From the NCBI RefSeq assembly GCF_024298765.1, contig NZ_CP101210.1: a DNA stretch of 64,000 nt; one strand, given 5' to 3'. This stretch comes from Escherichia coli. Its GTDB lineage: Bacteria; Pseudomonadota; Gammaproteobacteria; Enterobacterales; Enterobacteriaceae. Below are positions 1-53,804 of this stretch, in pieces. The number at the start of each line of letters is the position of its first letter. Positions within the stretch are counted from its first letter, which is position 1. The position numbers and the translations under genes are program-made. The notes under the pieces are model-generated. The model worked only from the letters and a program-made list of their open reading frames with translations, was not told the origin of the DNA and ran no database searches.

Positions 1-1
1 T

Positions 2-286
2 GCCCCTGAAGAGCTACTCAATCACACACAGCGTATCGAATTGCAGCAAGGTCGCGTCCGTAAAGCTGAACGCTGGGGACCGCGCACGCTGGATCTCGAC
101 ATCATGCTGTTTGGTAATGAAGTAATAAATACCGAACGTCTGACCGTTCCGCACTACGATATGAAAAATCGCGGCTTTATGCTGTGGCCACTGTTTGAAA
201 TTGCGCCGGAATTGCTATTTCCTGATGGCTTATCATTAGTTGAAGCTCTACAGGCAAAAGGCTTTAATGAATTAGATAAGTGGTAA
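2..286 (+). CDS. folK: 2-amino-4-hydroxy-6-hydroxymethyldihydropteridine pyrophosphokinase (HPPK), 3' portion only; 5' end lies outside the window
   Basis: ORF 41..286 translation matches the HPPK C-terminus; reading frame is open back to the window edge; position next to the yad fimbrial operon fits the known map. Confidence 0.85.
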   Translation, partial: APEELLNHTQRIELQQGRVRKAERWGPRTLDLDIMLFGNEVINTERLTVPHYDMKNRGFMLWPLFEIAPELLFPDGLSLVEALQAKGFNELDKW

Positions 287-647
287 TTATTATTCGTGTG
301 AATATAAATATATTCTGAAAACAACCTCAAGTTATTGCCAAAACAATATCATTAAGATAAATAAAATTTTAGAAAATATAATATACCTTCCCGTAATTCT
401 CACGCCATACACTATCCCTCTTAGCTTTCAAATTTAATTTTACTAACTTTTATTTTTAGTAAAATTAAATTGCATATGCTATCACATTATGCAAAATAGC
501 CATCCCGATGATGAATGAATGTAATAGTTGGTAAACAACAGACAAACATCATTAACACAGTAACGATTTTGTTACGCAGCATTGCAGCAGACTCTTATCG
601 TCATGCGGTGCGGTTATCTCTCTATGGAATATTATTCAAGGATTTTT

Positions 648-1238
648 ATGTCTAAAAAATTAGGTTTTGCGCTGTCTGGTATTATGTTGGCAATGGCTGC
701 TGGTACTGCATTTGCTGCTAACGATATGGACGGTGGTCAGTTAAATATTAGCGGCCTGGTCGTTGATAACACCTGTGAAGCTCGTGTTGATGGCGGTAAC
801 AAAGATGGTTTGATCCTGCTGCAAACCGCTACTGTTGCTGAAATCACCGATGGTGTACTGGATACCACCGTAGGTGCTAAAGCTAAGCCATTCAGCATTA
901 CTATTGACTGCAGCAAAGCTAACCCGGCTCCGGGTACTACTGCAAAAATGACTTTCGGTTCCGTGTTCTTTAGCAATAGCAAAGGTACTCTGAATAACGA
1001 TATGTCTATCAATAATCCATCTGATGGTGTGAATATTGCCCTGCATAATATTGAAGGTTCCACTATTAAGCAGGTTCAGGTTAATAATCCGGGTGATGTT
1101 TACAGCAAAACTCTGGATGCAACGTCTAAAACTGCAACCTACGATTTTAAAGCATCCTATGTTCGTGCTGATGCAAGCAAAGCAGCAACTGCCGGTTATG
1201 TAAAAACTAACTCAGCATATACCATTACTTACCAGTAA
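648..1238 (+). CDS. yadN: fimbrial major subunit of the Yad chaperone-usher fimbriae
   Basis: ORF 582..1238 trimmed to the ATG at 648 ([11 protein letters not shown]..., signal peptide ending AFA); fimbrial-subunit C-terminus; first gene of the fimbrial operon. Confidence 0.85.
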
Positions 1239-1346
1239 ATATCAGCCACCTAAATTGATTGGGTGAATATATATAGGGAATAACATCAAACATATTTATT
1301 TTTGAACGTTATTCCCTGTTTTAATTAACTCTGTGAGGAACGGTTT

Positions 1347-2087
1347 ATGTTTTTTAATACTAAACATACCGCAGCATTGTGCTTAGCGAGCTGTATGGCT
1401 TTTAGCTCATCAGCTATTGCAGACATCGTAATTTCAGGTACTCGCGTAGTTTATAAAAGCGAACAAAAAAGCGTCAATGTGCGTCTGGAAAATAAAGGCA
1501 ATAACCCATTGCTGGTTCAGAGTTGGTTAGATACTGGAGATGACAACGCTGAACCAGGCAGTATTACTGTCCCCTTTACCGCTACGCCACCAGTATCACG
1601 TATTGATGCTAAACGTGGCCAAACAATCAAACTGATGTACACCGCCAGTAGTGCTCTGCCAAAAGACAGAGAAAGTGTGTTCTGGTTTAACGTACTGGAA
1701 GTTCCACCAAAACCCGATGCAGCAAAAGCAGCAAATCAAAGCCTGCTACAACTGGCATTTCGTACACGTATAAAACTGTTCTATCGCCCGGAAGGATTGA
1801 GTGGAATTCCATCTGATGCGCCATTGGCTCTGAAGTGGTCCTGGGCAACATCTGAAGGCAAAGCGGCATTACGCGTTGATAACCCTACGCCCTACTATGT
1901 CTCTTTTAGCAGTGGTGATTTAGAAGCCAACGGCAAACGCTATCCCCTGGATGTGAAAATGATTGCGCCGTTCAGTAACGACGTCATCAAGGTAAATGGG
2001 ATGAGTGGCAGAACAAGCTCTGCAAAAGTGCATTTTTTCGCCATTAATGATTTTGGCGGCTCTATTGAAGGCAACGCCAACCTTTAA
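1347..2087 (+). CDS. ecpD: periplasmic fimbrial chaperone (PapD-like)
   Basis: 246-aa ORF with signal peptide and chaperone-like sequence; synonym yadV. Confidence 0.9.
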   Translation: MFFNTKHTAALCLASCMAFSSSAIADIVISGTRVVYKSEQKSVNVRLENKGNNPLLVQSWLDTGDDNAEPGSITVPFTATPPVSRIDAKRGQTIKLMYTASSALPKDRESVFWFNVLEVPPKPDAAKAANQSLLQLAFRTRIKLFYRPEGLSGIPSDAPLALKWSWATSEGKAALRVDNPTPYYVSFSSGDLEANGKRYPLDVKMIAPFSNDVIKVNGMSGRTSSAKVHFFAINDFGGSIEGNANL

Positions 2088-2121
2088 TCTGGCAAGGATA
2101 TACCACAGCAGGAAGCAGAAC

Positions 2122-4722
2122 GTGACTATTAAATCCACTAAAAAATATCATAATCACCTTACCCGCATCGCCACGTTTTGCGCGCTGCTGTATAGCAACA
2201 GTGCTTTATGCGCTGAACTCGTCGAATATGACCATACATTTCTGATGGGAAAGGATGCTTCAAATATCGACCTTAGTCGGTATACAGAAGGCAACCCGAC
2301 ACTACCAGGCATTTACGATGTCAGTGTGTATGTTAACGATCAACCTATCATGAGCCAAAGCATTGCTTTTACTGTTATTGAAGGTAAAAAGAACGCTCAG
2401 GCCTGCATTACGCAGAAAAATTTATTGCAATTTCATATCAGTTCACCAGACAAGAATAGCGAAAAAGCCATTTTGCTTAAGCGAGACGAAGATCTTGGTG
2501 ATTGCCTCAATCTGGCTGAAATGATCCCTCAATCATCCATTCGTTACGATGTTAACGATCAACGCCTGGATATCGACGTCCCCCAGGCATGGATTATGAA
2601 GAATTATCAAAACTATGTTGATCCCTCTTTGTGGGAAAATGGCATTAATGCAGCCATGCTTTCCTACAACCTCAATGGATATCACAGTGAAAGTCCAGGC
2701 AGAACAAATGACAGTATCTATGCGGCATTCAACGGTGGGATAAACTTAGGCGCGTGGCGGTTACGTGCCTCAGGTAACTACAACTGGATGACCAATGTCC
2801 ATAGTGATTATGATTTTCAGAATCGCTATTTACAACGCGATCTTGCGTCACTACGTTCACAACTGGTTATTGGTGAATCTTACACGACCGGCGAGACCTT
2901 CGATTCAGTCAGCATTCGCGGTATTCGCTTATACAGTGACAGTCGAATGCTGCCTCCGGTATTAGCCAGTTTTGCGCCAATCATTCATGGCGTAGCGAAT
3001 ACCAATGCCAAAGTAACCGTTATGCAAAATGGTTATAAAATCTATGAAACGACGGTGCCGCCAGGGGCCTTTGCCATTGATGATCTTAGCCCGTCAGGTT
3101 ATGGCAGTGATCTCATTGTGACTATCGAAGAAGCTGATGGCACAAAACGGACGTTCTCCCAGCCATTTTCATCTGTTGTGCAAATGCTGCGCCCTGGCGT
3201 TGGTCGCTGGGATATTAGCGCCGGTCAGGTTTTAAAAGACAGTATCCAGGATGAGCCTAATTTATTTCAAGCCAGCTACTACTATGGTTTGAATAACTAC
3301 CTGACAGGATATACCGGTATTCAGCTAACTGATAATAACTATACCGCCGGATTGCTGGGGCTTGGTATGAATACCCCCGTGGGGGCTTTTTCTGTCGATG
3401 TTACTCACTCAAATGTCAGCATTCCGGACGATAAAACCTATCAAGGACAAAGCTACCGTATTTCCTGGAACAAGTTATTTGAAAATACCAGTACATCATT
3501 AAATATCGCGGCCTATCGCTACTCCACCCAGCATTATCTGGGCCTCAATGATGCGCTGACGCTGATTGATGAAGTAGAACATCCTGAGCAAGATCTTGAG
3601 CCTAAATCCATGCGCAATTACTCGCGCATGAAAAATCAGGTCACGGTCAGTATCAACCAACCGCTGAAATTTGAGAAAAAGGATTACGGTTCATTTTATC
3701 TCTCGGGAAGCTGGTCAGATTACTGGGCCTCCGGACAAAACAGTACTAATTACTCTATTGGTTATAGCAATAGTGCGTCCTGGGGCAGTTACAGTATCAG
3801 TGCTCAACGTTCGTTGAATGAAGATGGTCAAACCGACGATAGCATTTATCTCAGCTTCACGATTCCAATAGAAAATTTACTGGGTACGGAACACCGCAGC
3901 TCCGGCTTCCAGAGTATTGATACACAATTAAACAGCGACTTTAAGGGTAATAACCAACTCAATATCAGCAGTAGTGGTTACAGCGATACCAATCGCATCA
4001 GCTACAGCGTAAACACGGGTTATATGATGAATAAATCCAGTGATGACCTGAGTTATATCGGCGGTTATGCCAGTTATGAATCGCCGTGGGGAACTCTGTC
4101 AGGTTCAGCCTCAGCAAGCAGTGATAATAGTCGCCAATTCTCACTCAATACTGATGGTGGATTTGTGTTACATAGCGGCGGGCTGACGTTCAGTAATGAC
4201 AGTTTTAGTGATTCCGACACTCTGGCTGTCATTCAGGCGCCAGGAGCAAAAGGCGCTCGTATTAACTACGGAAACAGCACCGTAGACCGCTGGGGTTATG
4301 GTGTGACCAGCGCCCTTTCGCCATACCATGAAAACCGTATCGCACTGGACATTAACGATCTGGAAAACGATGTTGAATTGAAAAGCACCAGTACTGTCGC
4401 CGTCCCGCTCCAGGGAGCCGTCGTCTTTGCTGATTTTGAAACAGTTCAGGGACAATCGGCAATTATGAATATCGTGCGAAGCGATGGTAAAAATATTCCA
4501 TTTGCAGCGGATATTTATGATGAACAAAACAATATCATCGGCAACGTAGGTCAGGGTGGTCAGGCCTTTGTTCGCGGTATCGGGCAGGAAGGAAATATAC
4601 GAATTACCTGGATTGAAGAGGGCAAACCAGTCAGTTGTTTTGCTCATTACCAACAAAACACGACATCAGAAAAAATAGCGCAATCTATTATTCTGAACGG
4701 ACTTCGTTGTCAGATACAGTAA
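2122..4722 (+). CDS. htrE: outer-membrane fimbrial usher
   Basis: ORF 2005..4722 trimmed to the GTG at 2122, which is preceded by AGGAAG; about 866 aa, typical usher size, with a Cys pair near the C-terminus. Confidence 0.9.
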   Translation: MTIKSTKKYHNHLTRIATFCALLYSNSALCAELVEYDHTFLMGKDASNIDLSRYTEGNPTLPGIYDVSVYVNDQPIMSQSIAFTVIEGKKNAQACITQKNLLQFHISSPDKNSEKAILLKRDEDLGDCLNLAEMIPQSSIRYDVNDQRLDIDVPQAWIMKNYQNYVDPSLWENGINAAMLSYNLNGYHSESPGRTNDSIYAAFNGGINLGAWRLRASGNYNWMTNVHSDYDFQNRYLQRDLASLRSQLVIGESYTTGETFDSVSIRGIRLYSDSRMLPPVLASFAPIIHGVANTNAKVTVMQNGYKIYETTVPPGAFAIDDLSPSGYGSDLIVTIEEADGTKRTFSQPFSSVVQMLRPGVGRWDISAGQVLKDSIQDEPNLFQASYYYGLNNYLTGYTGIQLTDNNYTAGLLGLGMNTPVGAFSVDVTHSNVSIPDDKTYQGQSYRISWNKLFENTSTSLNIAAYRYSTQHYLGLNDALTLIDEVEHPEQDLEPKSMRNYSRMKNQVTVSINQPLKFEKKDYGSFYLSGSWSDYWASGQNSTNYSIGYSNSASWGSYSISAQRSLNEDGQTDDSIYLSFTIPIENLLGTEHRSSGFQSIDTQLNSDFKGNNQLNISSSGYSDTNRISYSVNTGYMMNKSSDDLSYIGGYASYESPWGTLSGSASASSDNSRQFSLNTDGGFVLHSGGLTFSNDSFSDSDTLAVIQAPGAKGARINYGNSTVDRWGYGVTSALSPYHENRIALDINDLENDVELKSTSTVAVPLQGAVVFADFETVQGQSAIMNIVRSDGKNIPFAADIYDEQNNIIGNVGQGGQAFVRGIGQEGNIRITWIEEGKPVSCFAHYQQNTTSEKIAQSIILNGLRCQIQ

Positions 4723-4738
4723 CCACAAGGGACTTCCA

Positions 4739-5311
4739 ATGATAAAAACCACACCACATAAAATAGCAATACTCATGGGGCTATTATTATCGCCATCTGT
4801 ATTTGCAACGGATGTTAATGTCGATTTTACCGCTACCGTGAAAGCGACAACATGTAACATCACCCTGACATCGCTGAATGGTTCAAACGTCGTTGATAAT
4901 GGCAATGATAGTTATACCCTGATAATCCCCAAGATGGGACTGGATAAGATAGTCAATAAAGCGTCACAATCTGAGGCCAACTTCAAATTAGTCGCCAGTG
5001 GGTGTAGCAGTGGAATTAGCTGGATTGATACCACAATGACTGGAAATCAGTCTGGTAGTACATCGCTGATTATTCCACAATCTTCTGACTCCTCCTCAAC
5101 AACCAGTAATATTGGTATGGGATTTAAAAGATTAGAGACTTCGGGCGATACGTTTCTGAAACCCAATAGCGCGGAATACATCCGCTGGAAAACCACAGAA
5201 ATTAGCACCAGTGGTCTGGAAATGACTGTCGCACTGCGCGAAACAACCCCAGGACAGGGCATACCCGGGAAATTTCGCGCACAGGCAACGTTCAATTTCA
5301 TCTATCAATAA
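4739..5311 (+). CDS. yadM: fimbrial minor subunit
   Basis: 190-aa ORF with signal peptide; fimbrial subunit-like; operon context. Confidence 0.8.
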   Translation: MIKTTPHKIAILMGLLLSPSVFATDVNVDFTATVKATTCNITLTSLNGSNVVDNGNDSYTLIIPKMGLDKIVNKASQSEANFKLVASGCSSGISWIDTTMTGNQSGSTSLIIPQSSDSSSTTSNIGMGFKRLETSGDTFLKPNSAEYIRWKTTEISTSGLEMTVALRETTPGQGIPGKFRAQATFNFIYQ

Positions 5312-5325
5312 CAAGGATGACAATG

Positions 5326-5931
5326 ATGATATTAAAAAAATTATGTTATGGATTATCGGGTAGTCTATTTCTGGCTTCATCACTGTTAACCATTTCCTCA
5401 CATGCGGCCACTGATAGTATTGGCCTGACTGTTACTACAGACATAGAAATGGGTACCTGTACATCAACGTTGACTGATGACGGTACAGCTAAACTGTCCA
5501 CCATCAATTTCGGTGATGTATATATTTCTGAAATTAATGCCGAAACTAAAATTAAAACCTTCAAATTGCAGTTCAAAGACTGTGCGGGGATTCCCGGGAA
5601 AAAGGCCAAAATAAAGTTGACCCCACGAGCCTTATGCGAAGGTAATTCTAATAACGGCCCTGGATTTGCTAACGCATCAACGGCAACAGCAAAAGCAGCG
5701 GCAGTCGCCGTTGAGGTCTGGAGTACGTCCACACCAGGTAAAAACGGCGCAAAACAATTCAGTTGCGTCACCCCCGCAACAGAAGAAGTCAGTATTGCTG
5801 GTGCGACGGGAGGTGATGTTGTCGATTACCCGATGAGTGCTGTTTTGGTGGTCGCGAAAGATAAAACCGTTACAGATGTCACCGCGGGTGATTTCACCGC
5901 TCCGGCAACATTTACTGTGACTTATAACTAA
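5326..5931 (+). CDS. yadL: fimbrial minor subunit
   Basis: ORF 5317..5931; AAGGA at 5313-5317 favours the ATG at 5323 or 5326; signal peptide; fimbrial-like. Confidence 0.8.
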   Translation: MILKKLCYGLSGSLFLASSLLTISSHAATDSIGLTVTTDIEMGTCTSTLTDDGTAKLSTINFGDVYISEINAETKIKTFKLQFKDCAGIPGKKAKIKLTPRALCEGNSNNGPGFANASTATAKAAAVAVEVWSTSTPGKNGAKQFSCVTPATEEVSIAGATGGDVVDYPMSAVLVVAKDKTVTDVTAGDFTAPATFTVTYN

Positions 5932-5957
5932 CAGGCAGACCGATTCAGGAACTAAAT

Positions 5958-6554
5958 ATGCGCCCCACTCAACGTAATCTGATGAAAAAATCAATTCTGC
6001 TTCTGTCTTTGCTATTCAGCACCACTTTCCCTGTGGTTGCAGGACAGGATGTTGACATTGTTGCAAATATAAAAAATAACACCTGCCAAAGTGGAATCAG
6101 CAACAACGGAAATATTGATTTAGGTGTCGTTGGCGTGGGCGATTTTACCGGAAACATTTCAGCCGAAAATTATCACCCCGGTGGAAAAGAGTTCACTATT
6201 ACAGTACAGGACTGCACACTTCAGGGCACAGGGAATGTGTTAAATCAGTTACATATTGATTTTCGCGCACTCAGTGGCGTAATGGCGACAGGTTCCAGTC
6301 AAATATTCGCCAATGAAGACAACACCGGGGCTAAAAATGTTGGGGTAGTTATATTCTCTATTCAGGACCCGGCAAATACCTTCAACGTTCTTGGCGTAAC
6401 TGGTAGCTCACGTTCCGTTTATCCGGTCATGTCATCAGCACTAAACAATTCATCCTGGAAATTTAGCACTCGAATGCAAAAAATCGATCCAGCGCTGAAT
6501 GTCACCTCTGGCCAACTTATAAGCCATGTGTTAGTGGATATTTACTACGAATAA
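5958..6554 (+). CDS. yadK: fimbrial minor subunit
   Basis: 198-aa ORF with signal peptide; fimbrial-like. Confidence 0.8.
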
Positions 6555-6603
6555 CAGACAAAGTGCTGCAAGCATTATCTTGCAGCATGACAATGGAGTA
6601 AAA

Positions 6604-7869
6604 ATGAAGATATTCTTCAGATACTTTCTTTTTTTAGCACTATGCTCTTGTTGTTATACAGCAAGTGCCGGCACCGATGATAACGTCAGCTATCTTGTTG
6701 GGAATGATTACGGAGTGGGTCCGGGAGACCAAAAGTGGAGAGAAACAGGCCCCAGTGCAGACATTACTGTCAAATTCAGGTATTCAACAAGCACAAATAA
6801 CTTAGTTTTTTATAAACCAACCCAACTCGGACCAACAGGTGTGTCATTATACTGGTCTCAGTTAAATAGCGCTTCAGGTGGAGGTTACCTTTACTGCAAC
6901 AGAAGTAACACTGCAAGCGGTGAGCCTATGGCAATTGAAAATCAAATGGTTGATTCGGGTAAACGTTATGGCGGGCATAAACTATTTGAAACATCTGTCC
7001 CAGGCCTGTATTATACATTAAAGATATCAAACATTTGGTCATCATACACCACAACCAATATCAGTTCATCAGGTATGTATATCGGCGATTCTCCAACTCA
7101 ATATTTTCGGTGGATCCCCGAAAGTGAAGCCACTCTATATTGGTCTTGTAACAATGCAAACTCATCTAATAAATACTGGGCCGTAGGTGGAGTTTGGCAG
7201 TCGCTCACGGTGGAATTTTATACCGATACCAACTTTGACCCCACAAAGACAAACAAGGTAACATTATCTAAGCCGGGTGGTTATCTCTACTCATTCAAAG
7301 GATATGGTCTTGGTGGCGGTATCAACGATCACAGCTATTTCCTTAAAATAGATTTTGACCTGGATAATATGACGTTATCCAACCCAACGTGTTTTACTGC
7401 TGCACTTACTGGCCCATCTGTAAGCGGTTCAACAGTTAAAATGGGAGATTATACCCCAGCGCAAATAAAAAATGGCGCAACAGCGGTTCCTTTTGATATC
7501 ACGCTACAGAACTGTATTCGTGTTCGCAATATAGAAACAAAACTTATGTCAAACAAGGTGGGCAGTGTAAGCAAAGAACTTCTGGCTAACACACTCACAG
7601 GAAATAATGCAGCAAAAGGCGTTGGTGTACTGATTGAAGGTTTAAAAAACACTAAAAGTGCACAAATGGTACTGAAACCAAATGATTCAACGTCTGTTTA
7701 TAAAGATTACGAAACAGAAGATGACACTACCGGAGGAATTTACCCGGATAAAGGAAACGGTACCTCACAACCTCTTCATTTCCAGGCTACATTAAAACAA
7801 GACGGTAATATTGCTATAGAACCGGGGGATTTTAAAGCCACCAGCACTTTTCAGGTTACCTACCCCTGA
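6604..7869 (+). CDS. yadC: fimbrial tip adhesin (two-domain; N-terminal putative lectin domain, C-terminal pilin domain)
   Basis: ORF 6580..7869 trimmed to the ATG at 6604, preceded by GGAG; about 420 aa, large for a pilin; last gene of the operon. Confidence 0.8.
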
Positions 7870-7980
7870 TAACACTATCGCACCGCCAGACAACGGCGGT
7901 GCGATACGGATAAATCATTGCCCCCACCAATGTGACTGATAAAATGCGAGACAGCACAACATCATTTATCAGGATACGCT

Positions 7981-8775
7981 ATGAAACCAACCACGATTGC
8001 TTCATTGCAGAAATGCAAGCAGGACAAAAAACGTTTCGCAACCATCACCGCTTACGACTATAGCTTCGCAAAATTGTTTGCCGAAGAAGGACTTAACGTC
8101 ATGCTGGTAGGCGATTCACTGGGCATGACGGTTCAGGGGCATGACTCCACGCTACCGGTTACCGTTGCCGATATCGCCTATCACACCGCCGCTGTGCGTC
8201 GCGGCGCGCCAAACTGCCTTCTGCTGGCTGACCTGCCATTTATGGCGTATGCCACGCCGGAACAAGCTTTTGAAAACGCCGCAACGGTAATGCGTGCCGG
8301 AGCCAACATGGTCAAAATTGAAGGCGGTGAGTGGCTGGTGGAAACCGTACAAATGCTGACCGAACGTGCCGTTCCAGTTTGTGGTCATTTAGGCCTAACC
8401 CCACAGTCAGTGAATATTTTCGGTGGCTACAAAGTCCAGGGGCGCGGCGATGAAGCGGGCGATCAACTGCTCAGCGATGCATTGGCATTAGAAGCTGCTG
8501 GGGCACAGCTGCTGGTGCTGGAATGCGTGCCGATTGAACTGGCAAAACGTATTACCGAAGCACTGGCGATCCCGGTTATTGGCATTGGCGCAGGCAACGT
8601 CACTGACGGGCAGATCCTCGTGATGCACGACGCGTTCGGCATTACCGGCGGCCACATTCCTAAATTCGCTAAAAATTTCCTCGCCGAAACGGGCGACATC
8701 CGCGCGGCTGTGCGGCAGTATATGGCTGAAGTGGAGTCCGGCGTTTACCCGGGCGAAGAACACAGTTTCCATTAA
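7981..8775 (+). CDS. panB: 3-methyl-2-oxobutanoate hydroxymethyltransferase
   Basis: 264-aa ORF recognised as PanB. Confidence 0.95.
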
Positions 8776-8786
8776 GGAGTGACGTT

Positions 8787-9638
8787 GTGTTAATTATCGA
8801 AACCCTGCCGCTGCTGCGTCAGCAAATTCGCCGCCTGCGTATGGAAGGTAAGCGCGTGGCGCTGGTGCCCACCATGGGTAACCTGCACGATGGCCATATG
8901 AAGCTGGTCGACGAAGCCAAAGCCCGCGCCGATGTGGTAGTGGTCAGTATTTTCGTTAACCCGATGCAGTTTGACCGCCCGGAAGATCTGGCACGTTATC
9001 CACGGACCTTGCAAGAGGACTGCGAAAAGCTGAACAAACGTAAAGTGGATCTAGTTTTCGCGCCTTCGGTAAAAGAGATCTACCCGAACGGTACAGAAAC
9101 CCACACCTATGTTGATGTTCCCGGTCTTTCCACCATGCTGGAAGGTGCCAGCCGTCCGGGACATTTTCGCGGCGTTTCGACTATTGTCAGCAAGCTGTTC
9201 AATCTGGTCCAGCCGGACATCGCCTGCTTCGGTGAAAAAGATTTTCAGCAACTGGCGCTGATCCGCAAAATGGTTGCTGATATGGGCTTTGATATTGAGA
9301 TTATCGGTGTGCCAATTATGCGCGCCAAAGACGGTCTGGCGCTGAGTTCCCGTAACGGTTATCTGACGGCGGAACAACGCAAAATTGCGCCCGGTCTGTA
9401 CAAAGTTTTAAGTTCAATTGCCGACAAATTGCAGGCTGGGGAACGGGATCTCGATGAAATTATTGCTATTGCCGGGCAAGAACTGAATGAAAAAGGCTTC
9501 CGCGCCGATGATATTCAGATTCGTGATGCCGACACGTTGCAGGAAGTCTCTGAAAACAGCAAACGGGCAGTGATTCTGGTAGCCGCCTGGCTTGGCGATG
9601 CTCGCCTGATCGACAACAAAATCGTCGAACTGGCGTAA
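8787..9638 (+). CDS. panC: pantoate--beta-alanine ligase
   Basis: 283-aa ORF ([18 protein letters not shown]...) with GTG start at 8787; 11-bp gap after panB. Confidence 0.95.
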
Positions 9639-9645
9639 TCCTTAT

Positions 9646-9680
9646 CTGGCGCTACGGCTGATGGCGCCAGTTATTAATTT
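9646..9680 (+). terminator. stem-loop (ctggcgc...gcgccag) followed by T-rich tract; likely panC terminator
   Basis: inverted repeat read directly from the sequence immediately after the panC stop. Confidence 0.5.
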
Positions 9681-9733
9681 ACCCCACGTCATGGCGATGA
9701 CGTCTGTAAGCGATTATTCATAACGCAGACAAC

Positions 9734-9937
9734 TTAGTTAGAGTTAATTAGCTTATCAACCTCTGTAAGAGATAAAGTTGCCATCTCTGCAACGTCTTCC
9801 CGAGACATTCCTTTACTCAGAAGACGCTGGGCCAGCCTTACCTTCCGGAGTCCCTCTTTATATCCCTTCTGAAATCCCTTCTCTTCAAACCACTGCGCCA
9901 ACGTCTGCCTGGTTTCTCTCCGTGTCTTTATTTCCAT
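9734..9937 (-). CDS. free-standing small ORF (67 aa) homologous to the C-terminal domain of RpnC/YadD; candidate RpnS-like small protein
   Basis: translation MEIKTRRETRQTLAQWFEE...LSKGMSREDVAEMATLSLTEVDKLINSN parallels the yadD C-terminus (TLAQWFEE...LSKGMSREDVAEMANLPLAEVDKLIS); AAGGGAA sits 3 nt upstream of the ATG; DNA is near-identical to the yadD 3' end at both flanks. Confidence 0.4.
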   Translation of the reverse strand: MEIKTRRETRQTLAQWFEEKGFQKGYKEGLRKVRLAQRLLSKGMSREDVAEMATLSLTEVDKLINSN

Positions 9938-10005
9938 ATGTTCCCTTAATTATCTGGTCAGTTAACAATAACAATTATCTGGCTATAACTGATAATGCAG
10001 ATAAC

Positions 10006-10206
10006 TTAGCTAATCAGCTTATCAACCTCAGCAAGAGGTAAATTTGCCATCTCTGCAACGTCTTCCCGAGACATCCCTTTACTCAGAAAACGCAGGGCGA
10101 ATTCCTGTCTTACTTCCTGTCTAACCTCTTGTATTACCTCCTGTCTTACCTCCTGCCTTTCCTCCTGTCTTCCCCTCTCTTCAAACCACTGCGCCAGCGT
10201 CATCAT
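10006..10206 (-). CDS. internal in-frame small ORF within the rpnC 3' end (66 aa, begins MMTLAQWFEE); candidate intragenic RpnS-type antitoxin
   Basis: ATGATG at 10206..10201 on the - strand, preceded by GGGAGGG with 6-nt spacing; matches the published concept of intragenic small proteins in rpn genes. Confidence 0.4.
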   Translation of the reverse strand: MMTLAQWFEERGRQEERQEVRQEVIQEVRQEVRQEFALRFLSKGMSREDVAEMANLPLAEVDKLIS

Positions 10207-34774: not shown

Positions 34775-34934
34775 GGGTTATTCCTTATCTATCTAATAAC
34801 GTTGAGTTTTCTGGAACCTGTCCCATTGAACTCTCGCCGGAAAGCTCAATAAGACAGGTTCTACGTTTAGTTGCCGCGCTTTTATATGCGCTTGATTTAC
34901 AACATCTTCTGGATAATTTTTACCAGAAAAATCA

Positions 34935-35699
34935 CTAATTCTTTCGTTGCTCCAGACGACGTAGAGAACGCTCACGGCGGCTCTCTTCACGGCTTCTGTC
35001 GAGCAAAATTTCTTCGATAAAGGCCAGATGGCGATGCGATGCTTCGCGCGCTTCTTCCGGCTTACCGGCCATAATCGCTTCAAATATGCGGGTGCGGTGA
35101 CTACTCACCAGCGGCAGCATCTCGCGACGCGAATAGAGCAATTCGAAGTTCTGGCGGACATTCTGGGCCAACATCGGCTCCATACACCTTAGCAGATGAA
35201 GCAGAACCACATTGTGGGCCGCTTCGGTGACGGCAATCTGATACTGGAGTACGGCATTTGATTCCGCGTCCAGATCGCCAGACTGCTGCGCCAGCTCTAT
35301 GGCGTGGTGGAGTTCACGGATGCGTTCCTTGTCTTCATCGGTACTACGCAGCGCGGCGTAATAAGCGGCGATACCTTCCAGGGCGTGTCGTGTTTCGAGC
35401 AAGTCATACTGTGATTCAGGATGGTCGGAGAGCAGCTCCACCAGCGGATCGCTGAAGCTTTGCCATAGGCTGCTCTGGACAAAAGTGCCGCCACCCTGGC
35501 GACGAAGCAACAAGCCCTTCGCTTCGAGACGTTGAATCGCCTCACGCAATGAGGGACGGGAGACGTCAAACTGTTTTGCCAGTTCGCGTTCCGGTGGGAG
35601 TTTTTCGCCCGGGCGGAGAGTGCCTTCGAGGATCAAAAACTCCAGTTGCTGCTCAATCACATCGGAGAGTTTTGGTTGGCGGATTTTGCTGTAGGCCAT
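34935..35699 (-). CDS. pdhR: GntR-family pyruvate-responsive transcriptional repressor
   Basis: ORF 34935..35732 trimmed to [17 protein letters not shown] (254 aa). Confidence 0.9.
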
Positions 35700-35730
35700 G
35701 AGTTCCTGTCTTAAGCCACTTGCCGAAGTC

Positions 35731-35747
35731 AATTGGTCTTACCAATT
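35731..35747. promoter_or_regulatory. PdhR operator palindrome AATTGGTcttACCAATT in the pdhR promoter/leader
   Basis: perfect palindrome read from the sequence, about 32 bp upstream of the pdhR start; matches the known PdhR box. Confidence 0.75.
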
Positions 35748-36151
35748 TCATGTCTGTGACGCTAAAGTAACAAAGTATTCACCTTATGTCCATACAGGTT
35801 TTGATTGAAATCATGAAACTGTGCACATTTTAACAACTTGACATATATAACGTTTCAAAGTTGTAACTATGCACAAATGTAGACTTTACGTAAGAAAGGG
35901 ATTTTTTAACGATTATTAAACTATAAAAATCCGAATTGAACCGATTCACTTACCAATTTATCGATTTTTAATTCAAAAATAATGAATTTATATTCATTTT
36001 GTATGTTGAGGGGATTTGAGGCTGACCTTTACAAACGGTTCCTTTTTAAGCAACTCATCTTCAACCATGCATAAAGCGGGTGCATTCGCTGCCGTATACC
36101 ATTATTCTTTATCTGACGGAAGTCCTTTTGTAACAATTCAAACGTCTTTGA

Positions 36152-36169
36152 TGTAAACAAATTAATACA
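36152..36169. promoter_or_regulatory. putative TyrR box (TGTAAA-N6-AATACA) in the aroP upstream region
   Basis: resembles the TGTAAA-N6-TTTACA consensus; aroP is a known TyrR target; exact site not verified. Confidence 0.35.
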
Positions 36170-36242
36170 AAAAACGGAATTGCAAACTTACACACGCATC
36201 ACTGCGTAGATCAAAAAAACAATCACCGCACGAGGTTTCATA

Positions 36243-37613
36243 ATGGAAGGTCAACAGCACGGCGAGCAGCTAAAGCGCGGCCTTAAAAACCGCCATATTC
36301 AGCTTATCGCGCTGGGTGGCGCGATAGGGACAGGGCTATTCCTGGGTAGCGCCTCCGTAATACAGTCCGCAGGGCCAGGGATTATCCTGGGTTACGCCAT
36401 TGCTGGTTTTATCGCCTTTCTGATCATGCGTCAGCTAGGTGAAATGGTGGTCGAAGAACCTGTCGCAGGCTCCTTTAGCCACTTTGCTTATAAATACTGG
36501 GGCAGTTTTGCCGGTTTCGCCTCTGGCTGGAACTACTGGGTACTGTACGTTTTAGTTGCCATGGCAGAGCTGACTGCCGTGGGTAAATACATTCAGTTCT
36601 GGTATCCGGAAATCCCAACCTGGGTTTCTGCCGCCGTGTTCTTTGTGGTGATCAACGCCATCAACCTGACAAACGTAAAAGTGTTTGGCGAGATGGAGTT
36701 CTGGTTTGCCATTATCAAAGTTATCGCGGTGGTAGCGATGATCATCTTCGGTGCCTGGCTGCTATTCAGCGGCAACGGCGGCCCGCAGGCGAGCGTTAGC
36801 AACCTGTGGGATCAGGGTGGTTTCCTGCCACACGGCTTCACCGGTCTGGTGATGATGATGGCGATTATCATGTTCTCTTTCGGTGGTCTGGAACTGGTGG
36901 GGATCACCGCAGCAGAAGCTGATAACCCGGAGCAAAGTATCCCGAAAGCAACTAACCAGGTTATCTACCGCATCCTGATTTTCTATATTGGTTCGTTAGC
37001 CGTTCTGCTCTCACTAATGCCGTGGACCCGCGTTACCGCCGATACCAGTCCGTTTGTGCTGATCTTCCACGAGTTAGGCGATACCTTTGTAGCGAATGCG
37101 CTGAATATCGTGGTACTGACTGCTGCGCTCTCCGTGTACAACAGCTGCGTATATTGCAACAGCCGTATGCTGTTCGGTCTGGCACAACAAGGGAACGCGC
37201 CAAAAGCGCTGGCGTCTGTCGATAAACGCGGCGTACCGGTTAACACTATTCTGGTGTCTGCGCTGGTTACGGCATTGTGCGTACTGATTAACTACCTTGC
37301 CCCAGAGTCCGCTTTCGGACTGTTAATGGCGCTGGTGGTATCTGCACTGGTCATCAACTGGGCGATGATCAGTCTGGCGCATATGAAATTCCGTCGTGCC
37401 AAGCAGGAACAAGGCGTGGTAACTCGCTTCCCTGCTCTGCTTTATCCGCTGGGTAACTGGATCTGCCTGCTGTTTATGGCGGCGGTACTGGTGATTATGC
37501 TGATGACCCCAGGAATGGCGATTTCGGTATACCTGATCCCGGTATGGCTGATCGTGTTAGGTATCGGCTATCTGTTTAAAGAGAAAACCGCCAAAGCCGT
37601 AAAAGCGCATTAA
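36243..37613 (+). CDS. aroP: aromatic amino acid:H+ symporter (APC family)
   Basis: 456-aa hydrophobic ORF recognised as AroP. Confidence 0.9.
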   Translation: MEGQQHGEQLKRGLKNRHIQLIALGGAIGTGLFLGSASVIQSAGPGIILGYAIAGFIAFLIMRQLGEMVVEEPVAGSFSHFAYKYWGSFAGFASGWNYWVLYVLVAMAELTAVGKYIQFWYPEIPTWVSAAVFFVVINAINLTNVKVFGEMEFWFAIIKVIAVVAMIIFGAWLLFSGNGGPQASVSNLWDQGGFLPHGFTGLVMMMAIIMFSFGGLELVGITAAEADNPEQSIPKATNQVIYRILIFYIGSLAVLLSLMPWTRVTADTSPFVLIFHELGDTFVANALNIVVLTAALSVYNSCVYCNSRMLFGLAQQGNAPKALASVDKRGVPVNTILVSALVTALCVLINYLAPESAFGLLMALVVSALVINWAMISLAHMKFRRAKQEQGVVTRFPALLYPLGNWICLLFMAAVLVIMLMTPGMAISVYLIPVWLIVLGIGYLFKEKTAKAVKAH

Positions 37614-46149: not shown

Positions 46150-46356
46150 TCTGATGCGACGCTGGCCTGATAAGACGCGGGCAGCGTCGCATCAGGCATC
46201 GTGTGCAAATGTCGGATGCGGCGGGAACGCCTTATCCGACCTACAAGACCTTACATATCAACATGTTAAAATTGTAGATACTGATAAGACGCGCCAGCGT
46301 CGCATCGGGCATCTTGTGCAAATGTTGGATGCGGCATAAACGCCTATCCGACATAC
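46150..46356. repeat. cluster of about four REP units (BIME) between yacG and mutT; the last unit overlaps the mutT stop
   Basis: repeated gatgcgacgctg...cagcgtcgcatc and g(t)cggatgcggcg..aacgcctatccgacctac units read from the sequence. Confidence 0.8.
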
Positions 46357-46756: not shown

Positions 46757-46786
46757 AAAAAAGGCGCAGAATCCTGCGCCTTTTAC
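46757..46786 (-). terminator. stem-loop with U-tract downstream of secA (aaaaggcgcaggattctgcgcctttttt on the - strand)
   Basis: read directly from the sequence. Confidence 0.65.
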
Positions 46787-46801
46787 TTCAATTGTTAGCT
46801 T

Positions 46802-49507
46802 TTATTGCAGGCGACCATGGCACTGCTTGTATTTTTTACCAGAACCGCACGGGCAAGGATCATTACGTCCAACTTTGCGTTCACCGGTTTGTGCCGCCAG
46901 TGCAGCTGCGGCTGCAGAGTCGTCATCCTGATGGCTAAGCTGCTGCATTTGCGCTAAACGCTCGGCTTCCATACGACGCTGTTGTTCCAGCTCTTCAACC
47001 TCTTCAGGCATACGTACCTGGACTTTGCTCAGCGTGCTGATGACTTCATATTTCAGCGACTCCAGCATCGCTGCAAACATGGAGAACGATTCACGTTTGT
47101 ATTCCTGCTTCGGATCTTTCTGTGCATAGCCACGCAGGTGGATACCTTGACGCAGATAATCCATCGCCGCCAGGTGCTCTTTCCACAGGGAGTCAAGCGT
47201 TTGCAGCATGACGCCTTTCTCGAAGTGACGCATCATCTCAGCGCCAACCACTTCTTCTTTACGCTGATACACTTCGATGGACTGCGCCAGAATACGCTCA
47301 CGCAGCGTCTCTTCATGCAGTTCTGGCTCTTTGTCCAGCCACTCGGCAATCGGCAAATCGAGGTCGAAATCGTTCTTCAGACGTTCCTGCAGCCCCGGAA
47401 TATCCCACATTTCTTCCAGCGACTGTGGCGGAATGTAGGCATCAATGGTCGCTTTGAACACATCTTCACGAATGCTGTTGATGGTTTCACTCACATCGCT
47501 GACATCCAGCAGTTCGTTACGCTGGGAGTAAATGGCGCGACGCTGATCGTTAGCCACGTCATCATATTCCAGCAGTTGCTTACGAATGTCGAAGTTACGG
47601 CTTTCAACTTTACGCTGGGCGTTGGCAATCGCTTTGGTCACCCACGGGTGCTCGATGGCTTCGCCTGGTTTCATACCCAGTTTACGCATCATGCCGGAAA
47701 CACGGTCAGAAGCAAAAATACGCATCAGCGCATCTTCCATCGACAGGTAGAAACGTGAAGAACCGGCATCCCCCTGGCGCCCAGAACGACCGCGTAGCTG
47801 GTTATCGATACGACGAGATTCGTGACGTTCTGTACCGATGATATGCAGACCACCTGCAGCCAGTACCGCATCGTGACGCACCTGCCAGTCGGCTTTGATT
47901 TTTTCAATTTGCTCTGCGGTCGGATTTTCCAGCGCGGCAACTTCTGCCTGCCAGCTACCACCGAGCACAATATCTGTACCACGACCCGCCATGTTAGTCG
48001 CGATAGTCACCGCCGCCGGATAACCCGCTTGTGCAACAATCGCTGCTTCGTTAGCGTGGAATTTGGCGTTCAGAACGTTGTGTTTGATACCGGCTTTGGT
48101 CAGCTCGTTTGACACCAATTCCGATTTTTCGATGGAGATAGTACCCACCAGCACTGGCTGGCCCTTCGCAGTACGCTCTTTGATATCTTCGATGATCGCC
48201 TGGATTTTTTCTGCTTCAGTCATATAGACCAGATCTGGCAGATCTTTACGAATCATCGGACGGTTGGTTGGAACAACAACGGTATCCAGTTTGTAGATTG
48301 AGCTAAATTCGAAAGCTTCGGTATCAGCAGTACCGGTCATGCCCGCCAGTTTTTCATACAAACGGAAGTAGTTCTGGAAGGTGATCGACGCCAGCGTCTG
48401 GTTTTCGTTCTGGATCTGTACTCCTTCTTTCGCTTCCACTGCCTGATGCAGGCCATCGGACCAACGACGTCCCTGCATGGTACGACCGGTGTGTTCGTCA
48501 ACGATGATAACTTCACCATCTTTAACGATGTAGTCGACGTCTCGGGTAAACAGCGCATGAGCGCGCAGCGCCGCCGTTACGTGGTGCATCAGCATGATGT
48601 TGGCCGGAGAGTACAGAGACTCCCCTTCATCCATGATGCCTTCTTTCACCAGCAGTTCTTCAATCAGCACCAGACCACGTTCGGTCAGGTTCACCTGGCG
48701 AGATTTTTCGTCCACCGAGAAGTGGCCTTCGCCCTGGAAGGTTTCGGAGTCTTCTTTTTCCTGACGGATCAGGTGCGGAATAATTTTATTCACGCGTTTA
48801 TACATTTCCGAGCTGTCTTCTGCCGGGCCGGAAATGATCAGCGGTGTACGCGCTTCATCGATCAGGATGGAGTCCACTTCGTCCACCAGCGCATAGTGCA
48901 GTTTACGCTGTACACGTTCTTCAGGGCTGAACGCCATGTTATCGCGCAGGTAGTCAAAGCCGTATTCGTTGTTCGTACCGTAAGTGATGTCAGCTGCGTA
49001 AGCTTCGCGCTTTGCCGGTGCTGGCATGCCCGGCAGGTTGATGCCGACTGTCAGGCCGAGGAATTCAAACAACGGACGGTTGTTTTCGGCGTCACGTTGC
49101 GCCAGGTAATCGTTGACGGTAACAACGTGTACCCCCTTACCGGTTAATGCGTTCAGGTAAGCAGGCAGCGTTGCGGTCAGGGTTTTACCTTCACCGGTAC
49201 GCATTTCCGCGATGCAGCGTTCGTTAAGAACCATACCGCCGAGTAACTGAACGTCGAAGTGACGCATACCAAAGACGCGCTTACTTGCCTCACGCACCAC
49301 AGCGAAAGCTTCTGGGATCAGATTTTCCAGCACTTCGCCTTTTTCCAGACGTGCACGAAACTCTGCGGTTTTCCCTTTCAGTTCTTCGTCGGAGAGTTTT
49401 TCCATCTCCGGTTCCATGGCATTGATGATGTTGACGACTTTGCGCATCCGGCGCAGGGTGCGATCGTTACGACTACCGAAAACTTTAGTTAATAATTTGA
49501 TTAGCAT
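46802..49507 (-). CDS. secA: preprotein translocase ATPase SecA
   Basis: 901-aa ORF recognised as SecA, including the C-terminal zinc-binding [14 protein letters not shown]. Confidence 0.97.
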
Positions 49508-51329: not shown

Positions 51330-52481
51330 TTAATCAGCTTGCTTACGCAGGAATGCTGGGATATCCAGATAATCCGGCTCTTTCGCAGTTTGCGGTGCGT
51401 TGTCATTCACGACTTTAGCAACCGGTTTCTGCTCCTGAGTCAGCGGTGCCATCCCGTGCTGCTGGTAGCGATCCATCACTGGCTGCTGAACCTGCTTATT
51501 GGTCACCAGGGTGATTTCAGGACGTTTGTCCATACCGATACCTGTCGCAACAACGGTTACGCGCAGCTCGTCATTCATATCCGGGTCAAGAGAAGTACCG
51601 ATAACGACAGTTGCGTTGTCGGATGCAAATGCACGGATGGTGTTACCTACCGTTTCGAACTCATCCAGACGCAGGTCGAAGCCCGCCGTGATGTTAACCA
51701 GCACGCCGCGCGCGCCAGACAGATCGATATCTTCCAGCAGCGGAGAGGAGATAGCCATTTCAGCAGCTTCTTCCGCACGGTCTTCGCCGCTCGCCACACC
51801 AGAACCCATCATTGCGTAGCCCATTTCAGACATTACGGTACGTACGTCTGCAAAGTCCACGTTCATCAGGCCTGGACGAGTAATCAGTTCAGCGATACCT
51901 TGCACAGCACCTTTCAGTACATCGTTCGCTGCGCCAAATGCATCCAGCAGGGAGATACCGCGGCCCAAGACTTTCAGCAGTTTGTCGTTAGGGATAGTGA
52001 TCAGAGAGTCCACATGCTTGGACAGTTCAGTGATCCCCTGCTCAGCGAATGCCATACGCTTCTTGCCTTCAAAGTTGAAAGGCTTAGTCACGACAGCAAC
52101 GGTCAGGATCCCCAAATCTTTTGCCACTTCAGCGACAACTGGTGCTGCACCAGTACCGGTACCACCACCCATACCCGCAGCAATAAAGACCATGTCTGCA
52201 CCTTCCAGCGCCGCACGCAGTGCATCGCGATCCTCATCAGCCGCATTACGGCCAACTTCTGGATTTGCGCCAGCTCCCAGTCCTTTGGTGATACCGCTAC
52301 CGATTTGAATCGTCTGTCCAACCGCTGTTTTACGCAGCGCTTGTGCATCGGTATTTACCGCGAAGAATTCAACACCTTCAATGCGCTCGCGCACCATGTG
52401 TTCAACAGCATTACCGCCGCCGCCGCCGACGCCGATGACTTTAATCACCGCGTCATTGGTAAGTTCCATTGGTTCAAACAT
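51330..52481 (-). CDS. ftsZ: cell division GTPase FtsZ
   Basis: 383-aa ORF; tubulin signature GGGTGTG. Confidence 0.97.
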
Positions 52482-52541
52482 AGTTTCTCTCCGATTTGTG
52501 CCTGTCGCCTGAGGCCGTAATCATCGTCGGCCTCATAAAAA

Positions 52542-53804
52542 TTAAAACTCTTTTCGCAGCCAACTATTGAGTCGCTTGATCCACGAGCCAACTGATGCTG
52601 TAACACGTTTTTCTACTTCAGCTTCACCGTTAAGATGTGACTCTTTCCCATAGTGAAGCAATCCCACCGCCGTCGAATAATACGGCTCCTGAGCATAATC
52701 CGTTAAACCGGTAATGTTCAGCGGCGCGCCGATACGCACTTGCGTATGAAACACGCGCTGAGCACAGGCTGCAAGACCTTCGATCTGCGCTGCGCCACCA
52801 GTTAAAACAATGCCTGCCGCCAGGTGATGTTTAACCCCTTGTTGGCGAAGCTTTTCCTGCAACTGCAATATCTCTTCGTTGACCAGGTTGAGCAGCTCGG
52901 TATAGCGCGGCTCGATCACCTCTGCCAGGGTCTGACGTTGCAGACTCCGCGGTGGACGACCGCCTACGCTCGGCACTTCCACGCTCTCATCTTTTCCAAC
53001 GATGGAACCCAGCGCACAACCGTGGCGAACTTTAATCGCTTCGGCGTCGCTTGGCGGCGTGCCAAAGGCGTAAGCGATATCACTGGTCACGACATTGCCA
53101 GCATAAGGAATTACCTTAGTGTGGCGCAATGCCCCACCGGTATAAACGGCGATATCCATTGTACCACCACCGATATCGACGACGCAGACACCCAGTTCAC
53201 GTTCATCTTCCGTCAATACCGAATAACTTGATGCCAGTCCGGCAAATATCAGTTGGTCAACTTTCAACCCACAACGTTCAACCGCTTTGACGATGTTTTT
53301 CGCCATATCGTTGTGACATGTGATCAGGTGCACTTTTGCCTGCATCCGCACGCCCGAAAGTCCTACCGGATTCTTGATCCCTTCCTGATAGTCAATCGCA
53401 TACTCTTGCGGGATCACATGCAGCACACGATGCTCATCGCGCACACGCACCGATTTCGCGGTATGGACGACGTTTTCCACATCTTCTTGCGTCACTTCTT
53501 CTTCAGAAATAGGCACCATACCAATTTCATTCTGGCAGCTGATGTGCTTACCAGAAAGCGCCAGATATACCGAAGAGATCTGACAATCTGCCATCAATTC
53601 TGCCTGGTCAATGGCGCGTTGTACGCACTTGACCACGGATTCGAGGTCGTTCACCCCGCCTTTATCCATACCACGCGACGGGCAGCTGCCCACGCCAATG
53701 ATATTGACCATACCGTCGGGCAGAACTTCCCCTACTAAAGCGGCAACCTTCGCGGTACCAATCTCCAGTCCTACTACCAGTTTTCTGTCCGTCGCCTTGA
53801 TCAT
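52542..53804 (-). CDS. ftsA: cell division protein FtsA (actin-like ATPase)
   Basis: 420-aa ORF recognised as FtsA. Confidence 0.97.

Follow-up and report, generated by a model that had tools for sequence, protein, structure and literature searches.

The Yad fimbriae of Escherichia coli are of the chaperone-usher class, and their gene order, H-NS-silenced AT-rich leader and variable adhesin tip are already published (by 2026). Wurpel et al. classed Yad as core-associated and ancestral, with the Salmonella Sta fimbriae reported at the same locus position (PMC3559732). Here we analyse a stretch of 64,000 nucleotides of E. coli DNA (contig NZ_CP101210.1 of assembly GCF_024298765.1; the window), and we hold with high confidence that its positions 287-7869 are the chromosomal Yad chaperone-usher operon, at the ancestral folK-panB site and with alleles of the type found in the uropathogenic strains CFT073 and Nissle 1917. 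To the published picture the analysis adds this allele assignment, the mosaic structure of the operon, the extent of the polymorphic cassette to which it belongs and two conserved elements in its leader.

The Yad operon of K-12 (yadN-ecpD-htrE-yadMLKC) shares with the window copy its gene order, locus and domain architecture, as well as an AT-rich, H-NS-bound leader with the same conserved blocks and translation-initiation region; it differs in the leader as a whole, which is ~55% identical, and in the last 18 residues of FolK. The operon of CFT073 and Nissle 1917 lies at the same locus with the same seven genes, and the lectin domain of its YadC equals that of the window at 227 of 228 aligned positions, whereas YadM, YadL and the leader (201-600) are less alike. 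The Salmonella Sta fimbriae (staABCDEFG) are an orthologous fimbrial type, with StaA, StaD and StaE as the next-best NCBIfam models for YadN, YadM and YadL, but all Sta model scores fall under their equivalog cut-offs and the Salmonella adhesin is ~43% identical to the window YadC. Type 1 fimbriae (fimAICDFGH) follow the same assembly pathway and two-domain adhesin plan, and the YadC model is structurally closest to FimH; the two adhesins nevertheless have ~12% sequence identity, and the lectin domain of YadC is the larger, at ~228 residues against ~158 in FimH. The type 1 locus also has the fimB/fimE recombinase genes and the invertible fimS element, neither of which accompanies the yad operon, and the reported ligands differ. 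The operon and its flanks are laid out as follows.

1-286, + strand: C-terminal part of folK, the final 94 residues of HPPK; the stop codon ends at 286
287-647, + strand: yad leader/promoter region, 361 bp, 29.6% G+C, a presumed H-NS target
648-1238, + strand: yadN, major fimbrial subunit, 196 residues (Pfam Fimbrial PF00419, E 1e-10)
1347-2087, + strand: yadV (ecpD), PapD-like periplasmic chaperone, 246 residues (NF007398, 460 bits against a cut-off of 285)
2122-4722, + strand: htrE, outer-membrane usher, 866 residues, GTG start (NF007337, 1691 bits against a cut-off of 830)
4739-5311, + strand: yadM, minor pilin, 190 residues (PF00419, 7.6e-18)
5317-5931, + strand: yadL, minor pilin, 204 residues (PF00419; YadL equivalog NF011797, 417 bits against 206)
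5958-6554, + strand: yadK, minor pilin, 198 residues (NF011794, 304 bits against 132)
6604-7869, + strand: yadC, presumptive two-domain tip adhesin, 421 residues (NF007267 'fimbrial-like adhesin', 851 bits against 391)
7981-8775 and 8787-9638: panB and panC, downstream of the yad operon

The seven genes run in the order yadN, yadV/ecpD, htrE, yadM, yadL, yadK, yadC, all on the + strand with short spacers, and each is intact and of full length compared with annotated homologues. A sequence-only reading had proposed seven co-directional genes with these roles, and Pfam, NCBIfam, the structure model of YadC, folK-panB synteny and RefSeq annotation all confirm it; its description of the locus as known biology was likewise sound, with every element lying where it had been placed and the interpretation already in print. 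The closest NCBIfam model for YadN is StaA, and the protein is annotated elsewhere as yadN/fimbrial protein. YadV has both chaperone domains (PapD_N PF00345, 2e-44; PapD_C PF02753, 3e-18), and HtrE has the PapC_N (PF13954), Usher (PF00577, 5.7e-160) and PapC_C (PF13953) domains and qualifies as an HtrE equivalog, with 87% amino acid identity to HtrE of K-12 and 99% to that of CFT073/Nissle. A Pfam search with YadK gave no match, so that its pilin assignment comes from NCBIfam NF011794; it ends in the C-terminal pilin motif ...DIYYE, and the pilin C-termini of the operon have a penultimate tyrosine (...TYQ, ...IYQ, ...TYN, ...YYE, ...TYP). The folK-panB flanks are common to K-12, CFT073, Nissle and four other strains, in which RefSeq annotates the same seven genes at this site. 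The longest open reading frames (ORFs) begin upstream of the true starts of yadN (582), htrE (2005) and yadC (TTG at 6580). The yadC ATG at 6604 is preceded by a GGAG Shine-Dalgarno sequence at 6595-6598 and opens a canonical signal peptide; RefSeq annotations differ between 6580 and 6604, giving 429 residues in CFT073 and in the pig isolate 20Ec-P-124 and 421 in Nissle. A 9-bp palindromic stem, TGCTGCAAG-N6-CTTGCAGCA, lies at 6563-6587 between the yadK stop and the yadC Shine-Dalgarno sequence, where it overlaps the alternative TTG start of some RefSeq annotations.

Protein identity places the operon with CFT073 and Nissle 1917, two strains whose protein accessions coincide from YadN to YadK and whose yadC is one and the same gene, annotated from two starts. 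The window proteins are 98% (YadN), 98.8% (YadV), 99% (HtrE), 96.5% (YadK) and 98.8% (YadC) identical to theirs, with lower values for YadM (81%; 79% in nucleotides) and YadL (93.6%). Sliding nucleotide identity to Nissle/CFT073 is 98-100% over yadV-htrE and yadK-yadC (97-99% overall for htrE and yadK-yadC), 75-86% over yadM (4700-5300) and 80-90% over the leader (201-600); the overall identity of Nissle 1917 to the window is 95.3%. Because yadM and the leader diverge amid near-identical flanks, the operon of the window is of the CFT073 type but has a yadM and a leader that have recombined, and this pattern of identities indicates recombination within the operon, with another allele as the donor.

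Megablast of window positions 1-8000 against 5426 complete E. coli genomes gave 73 records at at least 99% identity, 199 at 95-99%, 1057 at 90-95%, 273 at 80-90% and 3509 at 60-80%. Among the matches listed, the sole one at 100% is that of 20Ec-P-124, which is set apart from the window by an ISApl1 insertion at 356/357 and one substitution in 9.3 kb. ISApl1 is an insertion sequence (IS) linked to mcr-1 mobilisation; in 20Ec-P-124 it sits in the yad leader (3358-4429 of record L001) with a 2-bp duplication. Elsewhere, IS5, ISKpn26 or IS1 is found inside yad in other strains, strain YY76-1 has lost the yad operon beside an IS1, and yadC of strain O111 has an internal stop.

The domain plan of YadC is as follows.

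Residues 1-22: signal peptide
Residues ~23-250 (6670-7353, + strand): lectin domain
Residues ~251-421 (7354-7866, + strand): pilin domain

The Pfam Fimbrial family matches residues 259-420 only. An AlphaFold2 model of YadC, built from 35 YadC alleles, has a mean predicted local distance difference test score (pLDDT) of 85.2, and a Foldseek comparison with the PDB gave full-length matches to FimH (6.6e-8 over 404 columns), FocH and PapG; the C-terminal domain matched FimA, FimG and FimF at template-modelling (TM) scores of 0.7-0.76. The model thus has an N-terminal receptor-binding domain followed by a pilin domain at the C-terminus and lacks an N-terminal donor strand, as expected of a two-domain adhesin. 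A sequence search of the PDB with YadC gave no match, and no YadC relative has a solved structure. The earlier proposal that YadC is the presumptive two-domain tip adhesin is therefore supported both by a pilin match limited to the C-terminal ~160 residues and by a model resembling FimH, FocH and PapG. For the near-identical YadC of CFT073, binding to annexin A2 and inhibition by xylose have been reported (PMC6921372), and a two-domain YadC whose lectin half is more variable than its pilin half has been published (PLoS Pathog 2026; PMC13245861).

For comparison among strains, YadC was divided at residue 250 into a lectin and a pilin half. Identities of the two halves to the window protein are 51% and 74% in K-12, 55% and 72% in 1162C, 48% and 76% in PSS-16, and 73% and 73% in HCM-27C-1; columns of the 35-allele alignment have a mean pairwise identity of 0.47 in the lectin half and 0.66 in the pilin half. 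YadC is therefore not invariant across strains, and the suggestion that its N-terminal half is the most strain-variable part agrees with lectin identities of 48-55%, against 72-76% for the pilin half, relative to three allele types. Lectin-coding DNA is present at at least 99% identity in 240 genomes (the CFT073-type lectin allele, ~4% of the 5426), at 90-95% in 3 and at <80% in 3795, and 2192 of 4038 matches cover at least 80% of the query. Pilin-coding DNA is graded instead, with 73, 184, 303, 81 and 3655 genomes at at least 99%, 95-99%, 90-95%, 80-90% and 60-80% identity, and 4016 of 4296 matches cover at least 80% of the query. In several hundred genomes, therefore, the pilin half resembles that of the window but the lectin half does not, which points to exchange at the domain boundary. 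Singling out YadC nevertheless understates the variation: every gene of the operon, the leader and the tail of folK are highly polymorphic.

The polymorphic cassette runs from the last 18 folK codons to the 5' part of panB and is ~80% identical to K-12 in nucleotides. Its upstream edge lies inside a coding region.

232-286, + strand: hypervariable 3' tail of folK (last 18 codons and stop)

The FolK fragment is that of K-12 apart from this tail. The 65 residues before it (to ...FPDG) are identical in seven strains, the last 18 mostly differ, and 16-17 of the 29 final residues match alleles of types other than CFT073's; over positions 1-300, sliding nucleotide identity to K-12 falls from 94% to 59%. 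One metagenome leader (L025) has apparently lost the folK stop, making FolK longer by ~14 codons. At the other edge the divergence fades within the first third of panB, over which gene identity to K-12 rises from 87% to 98%; such a gradient (7981-8400) is as expected for hitch-hiking beside an old polymorphism. Between the edges, amino acid identities to K-12 are 86% (YadN), 87% (YadV), 87% (HtrE), 76% (YadM), 67% (YadL), 77% (YadK) and 61% (YadC), with nucleotide identities of 67-84% for the yad genes. Nei-Gojobori synonymous divergence (dS) from K-12 is 0.79-1.57 for the yad genes against 0.29 for panB and 0.18 for panC, and the ratio of non-synonymous to synonymous divergence (dN/dS) of the yad genes is 0.04-0.22 in this comparison. 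High dS together with low dN/dS indicates that the allele families are very old and have been under purifying selection throughout, weakest on YadC. The surface-exposed parts are the most divergent, the YadC lectin domain first and then YadL and YadM.

We infer that the locus is no recent island but an old cassette of multiple alleles, which homologous recombination has reshuffled, with segments exchanged between allele families. That the operon is instead a recently acquired foreign island would explain its low G+C content (43.5% against 52.2% in the flanks), its ~80% identity to K-12, a dS from K-12 of ~1 or more beside a panC dS of 0.18, and the sharp boundaries of the divergence, yet we consider it improbable. 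Every allele family occupies the same folK-panB site, at which position Sta is reported in Salmonella (PMC3559732), and the window copy has no integrase, transfer RNA (tRNA) or IS; a tRNA search found none at the yad operon. A scan for conserved HtrE peptides through a 100,044-species genome set returned only E. coli and contaminant contigs, and YadC relatives of at least 79% identity are all from E. coli, with homologues from E. fergusonii and the cryptic clades at 56-61%. Homologous replacement among E. coli lineages fits these observations better than the insertion of an island. The same HtrE scan, which takes one genome per species and detects exact 7-residue peptides only, showed no donor species outside E. 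coli. HtrE was present on two non-E. coli contigs, one from a metagenome-assembled genome labelled 'Proteobacteria bacterium' (L008, JAEWKH010000045) and one of 243 bp from Pseudomonas yangonensis (L010), at 100% and 88% identity; both are most likely due to contamination or mis-binning.

The leader is AT-rich, with 29.6% G+C against 43.5% in the operon and 52.2% in the rest of the window (56 kb). Among all 361-bp windows in the 64 kb it ranks in the lowest 0.13% by G+C, an AT-richness far beyond chance. The earlier description of an AT-rich leader of the kind silenced by H-NS is thus confirmed in its composition, and H-NS control has been published for K-12, CFT073 and EC958; by analogy with these strains, the window leader is probably silenced in the same way. 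Deletion of hns raises Pyad activity >100-fold in CFT073 and derepresses all seven yad genes in CFT073 and EC958, and expression of the operon rises in serum and in infected tissue (PMC13245861). In K-12, the spacer between folK and yadN counts among the H-NS-associated 'promoter islands' (PMC3661553), over-production of SlyA raises yadN 2.4-fold (PMC5797941), and ArcA and low temperature are linked to higher yad expression (PMC13245861, where a paper by Larsonneur et al. (2016) on the yad promoter, ArcA and xylose is cited). A terminator scan found nothing on the + strand, and Rfam showed no known RNA family in window positions 1-10,000.

The sequence-only reading had called the operon cryptic. 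This is a laboratory label from K-12 and does not carry over to the CFT073-type operon, which is inducible by serum and infected tissue and contributes to colonisation (PMC13245861, PMC6921372); the term should be read as H-NS-silenced and conditionally induced. In its strict sense, 'cryptic' would make the cluster a decaying, non-functional remnant, and poor expression in laboratory K-12 (PMC3559732, PMC5797941) as well as the IS insertions, the yadC internal stop and the whole-operon deletion in other strains could be read in that way. We regard this as very improbable, given that all seven ORFs of the window are intact and of full length, that dN/dS is low (0.03-0.22) in every gene despite saturating dS, which speaks for long-term purifying selection, and that the same allele type is serum-induced and needed for full colonisation (PMC13245861, PMC6921372).

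Leaders were compared across 26 distinct sequences from seven genomes and 38 metagenome contigs, with conservation computed over 13 representatives. They form three families that are 45-57% identical to the window leader, and mean pairwise identity over the whole leader (287-647) is 0.58. Against this background the following elements stand out.

299-322, + strand: block GTGAATATAAATATATTCTGAAAA just 3' of the folK stop, mean pairwise identity 0.91
431-471, strandless: 41-bp palindrome AATTTAATTTTACTAA-N9-TTAGTAAAATTAAATT with perfect 16-nt arms
490-499, + strand: conserved TGCA(A/C)AATAG motif, a possible -10 element (when read as TGCAAAATAG), ~40 nt downstream of the palindrome centre
626-647, + strand: yadN translation-initiation region with an AAGGA Shine-Dalgarno sequence, the most conserved block (0.93), invariant in the 26 leaders

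The block at 299-322 contains TATAAAT and a GAATAT/ATATTC quasi-palindrome and may act as a distal promoter or as a binding site. The palindrome arms (conservation block 429-469) have mean pairwise identities of 0.74-0.77 and are perfect over 16 nt in the window and over 17 nt in PSS-16. A core equivalent to ACTTAA-N7-TTAAGT is kept in all three leader families, one of its pairs being flipped symmetrically from T-A to A-T in the family of the window leader, and the leader of CFT073/Nissle has a palindrome of the same type (ACTAA/TTAGT). Identity is 0.73 in the block at 486-504 and 0.72-0.74 over the stretch 486-560, which includes the TGCA(A/C)AATAG motif. The palindrome has a fold z-score of -4.8, the 16-17-nt arms in two families beat all 200 shuffles, and the symmetry is specific to its register (77.8% against 32-60% when slid). 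Covariation is weak: among 13 distinct leaders there was a single symmetric double change, and 17 of 500 shuffles did equally well. We therefore do not claim an RNA hairpin and prefer to read the palindrome as a conserved DNA site. The palindrome is a candidate operator for a dimeric regulator and, with moderate probability, a conserved protein-binding site rather than a hairpin. Compared by eye, neither the SlyA operator (TTA-N6-TAA; PMC5797941) nor the sites of ArcA, CRP, NarL, RcsB, OmpR and CpxR fitted it convincingly, and no assignment is made. The Yad literature searched contained no description of the palindrome or of the 299-322 block.

It is nearly an even question whether the palindrome instead has no function and arose by chance in AT-rich sequence or through template-switch 'palindrome correction'. 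The single symmetric double change and the 17 of 500 shuffles that reach the observed pairing agree with this, as do the shared level of conservation in the neighbouring 486-560 region and a search of the 64-kb window in which no second copy of the core was found beyond chance; a core kept in three families otherwise 45-57% identical, the register-specific symmetry and the perfect arms that in two families fold better than every shuffle argue the other way. A perfect inverted repeat in a fimbrial leader might also suggest a phase-variation switch, either an invertible element of the fim type or a methylation switch of the pap type. To this we assign next to no probability: the arms of the only strong inverted repeat are 9 nt apart and leave no room for a promoter between them, no recombinase gene adjoins the operon, all 26 leader variants show a single orientation, and Yad is described in the literature as not phase-variable (PMC13245861). 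Returning to the candidate operator, we put forward tentatively, and as a rather doubtful proposal, that the palindrome and the 299-322 block, kept since the allele families arose (dS >1), may be sites where a dimeric regulator counters H-NS in response to host cues, and that the folK-panB interval may be an ancient balanced polymorphism that cuts into the coding tail of the essential folK gene.

Two further structures may shape the transcript within and after the operon.

1273-1319, + strand: stem-loop in the yadN-yadV spacer with a 12-bp outer stem followed by U-rich UGUUUUAAUU (minimum free energy -27 kcal/mol, z -2.3)
7876-7906, + strand: G+C-rich 12-bp stem-loop after yadC, without a U-tract (minimum free energy of the region -38.5 kcal/mol, z -6.4)

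The first is likely a partial terminator or a messenger RNA stability element that sets the excess of the major subunit, and the second is probably the 3' end or a stabiliser of the operon transcript. Downstream of the second stem-loop and ahead of panB is a promoter-like site (7918-7945). Together these features would fit the usual chaperone-usher logic, with the major subunit in excess and the operon ending at a defined point.

By analogy with type 1 and P pili, the subunits would be exported by Sec and captured by the PapD-like chaperone YadV, and the usher HtrE would polymerise them by donor-strand exchange. YadC would be incorporated first, at the tip, with YadK, YadL and YadM as adaptor or minor subunits and YadN as the shaft, and the ~230-residue N-terminal lectin domain of YadC would bind the receptor, for which annexin A2 and xylose-containing glycans have been published for this allele type. 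Transcription would start within the 361-bp leader, silenced by H-NS and relieved by serum and other host cues. Several points weigh against extending this picture to the window copy in full. What YadK, YadL and YadM do and in which order the subunits assemble is carried over from the model pili, and a consensus promoter scan, in which overall site counts equalled the shuffled expectation, found no sigma-70 site at at least 9/12 on the leader's + strand. Since the leader has 80-90% identity with that of CFT073 and yadM is another allele, regulation and fibre composition could differ, and the functional data come from strains other than one with this exact sequence.

Elsewhere in the window, a 67-residue ORF (9734-9937, - strand) lies between panC and rpnC/yadD, which encodes a recombination-promoting nuclease (10006-10926, - strand). 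It is annotated elsewhere as hypothetical or as RpnC/YadD-family and is absent from K-12, where rpnC directly follows panC. Rfam PssrA ('plasmid-encoded Shigella sRNA A') has a chromosomal match at 52473-52562 on the - strand (105 bits; gathering score 69), where two minus-strand ORFs of 383 and 420 residues meet; by size and order these look ftsZ- and ftsA-like. The other Rfam matches are tp2 (34777-34890), STnc40 (46757-46826) and naRNA4 (46164-46241). The only other stretch of the window with <33% G+C, 35644-36228, lies between divergent ORFs at 34935-35732 (- strand) and 36243-37613 (+ strand), presumably pdhR and aroP. In K-12, the spacer between aroP and pdhR, too, is among the promoter islands listed in PMC3661553.

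The practical value of the analysis is in allele typing. The annexin A2 and xylose receptor data, like those on bloodstream infection, come from work on the CFT073-type lectin domain, and the strain with this window can be expected to share the adhesive specificity of that domain. The conserved leader elements, the mosaic yadM and the cassette edges in folK and panB could help in the search for the factor that counteracts H-NS and turns on Yad in serum, and these observations are relevant to the population genetics of fimbrial loci as well.

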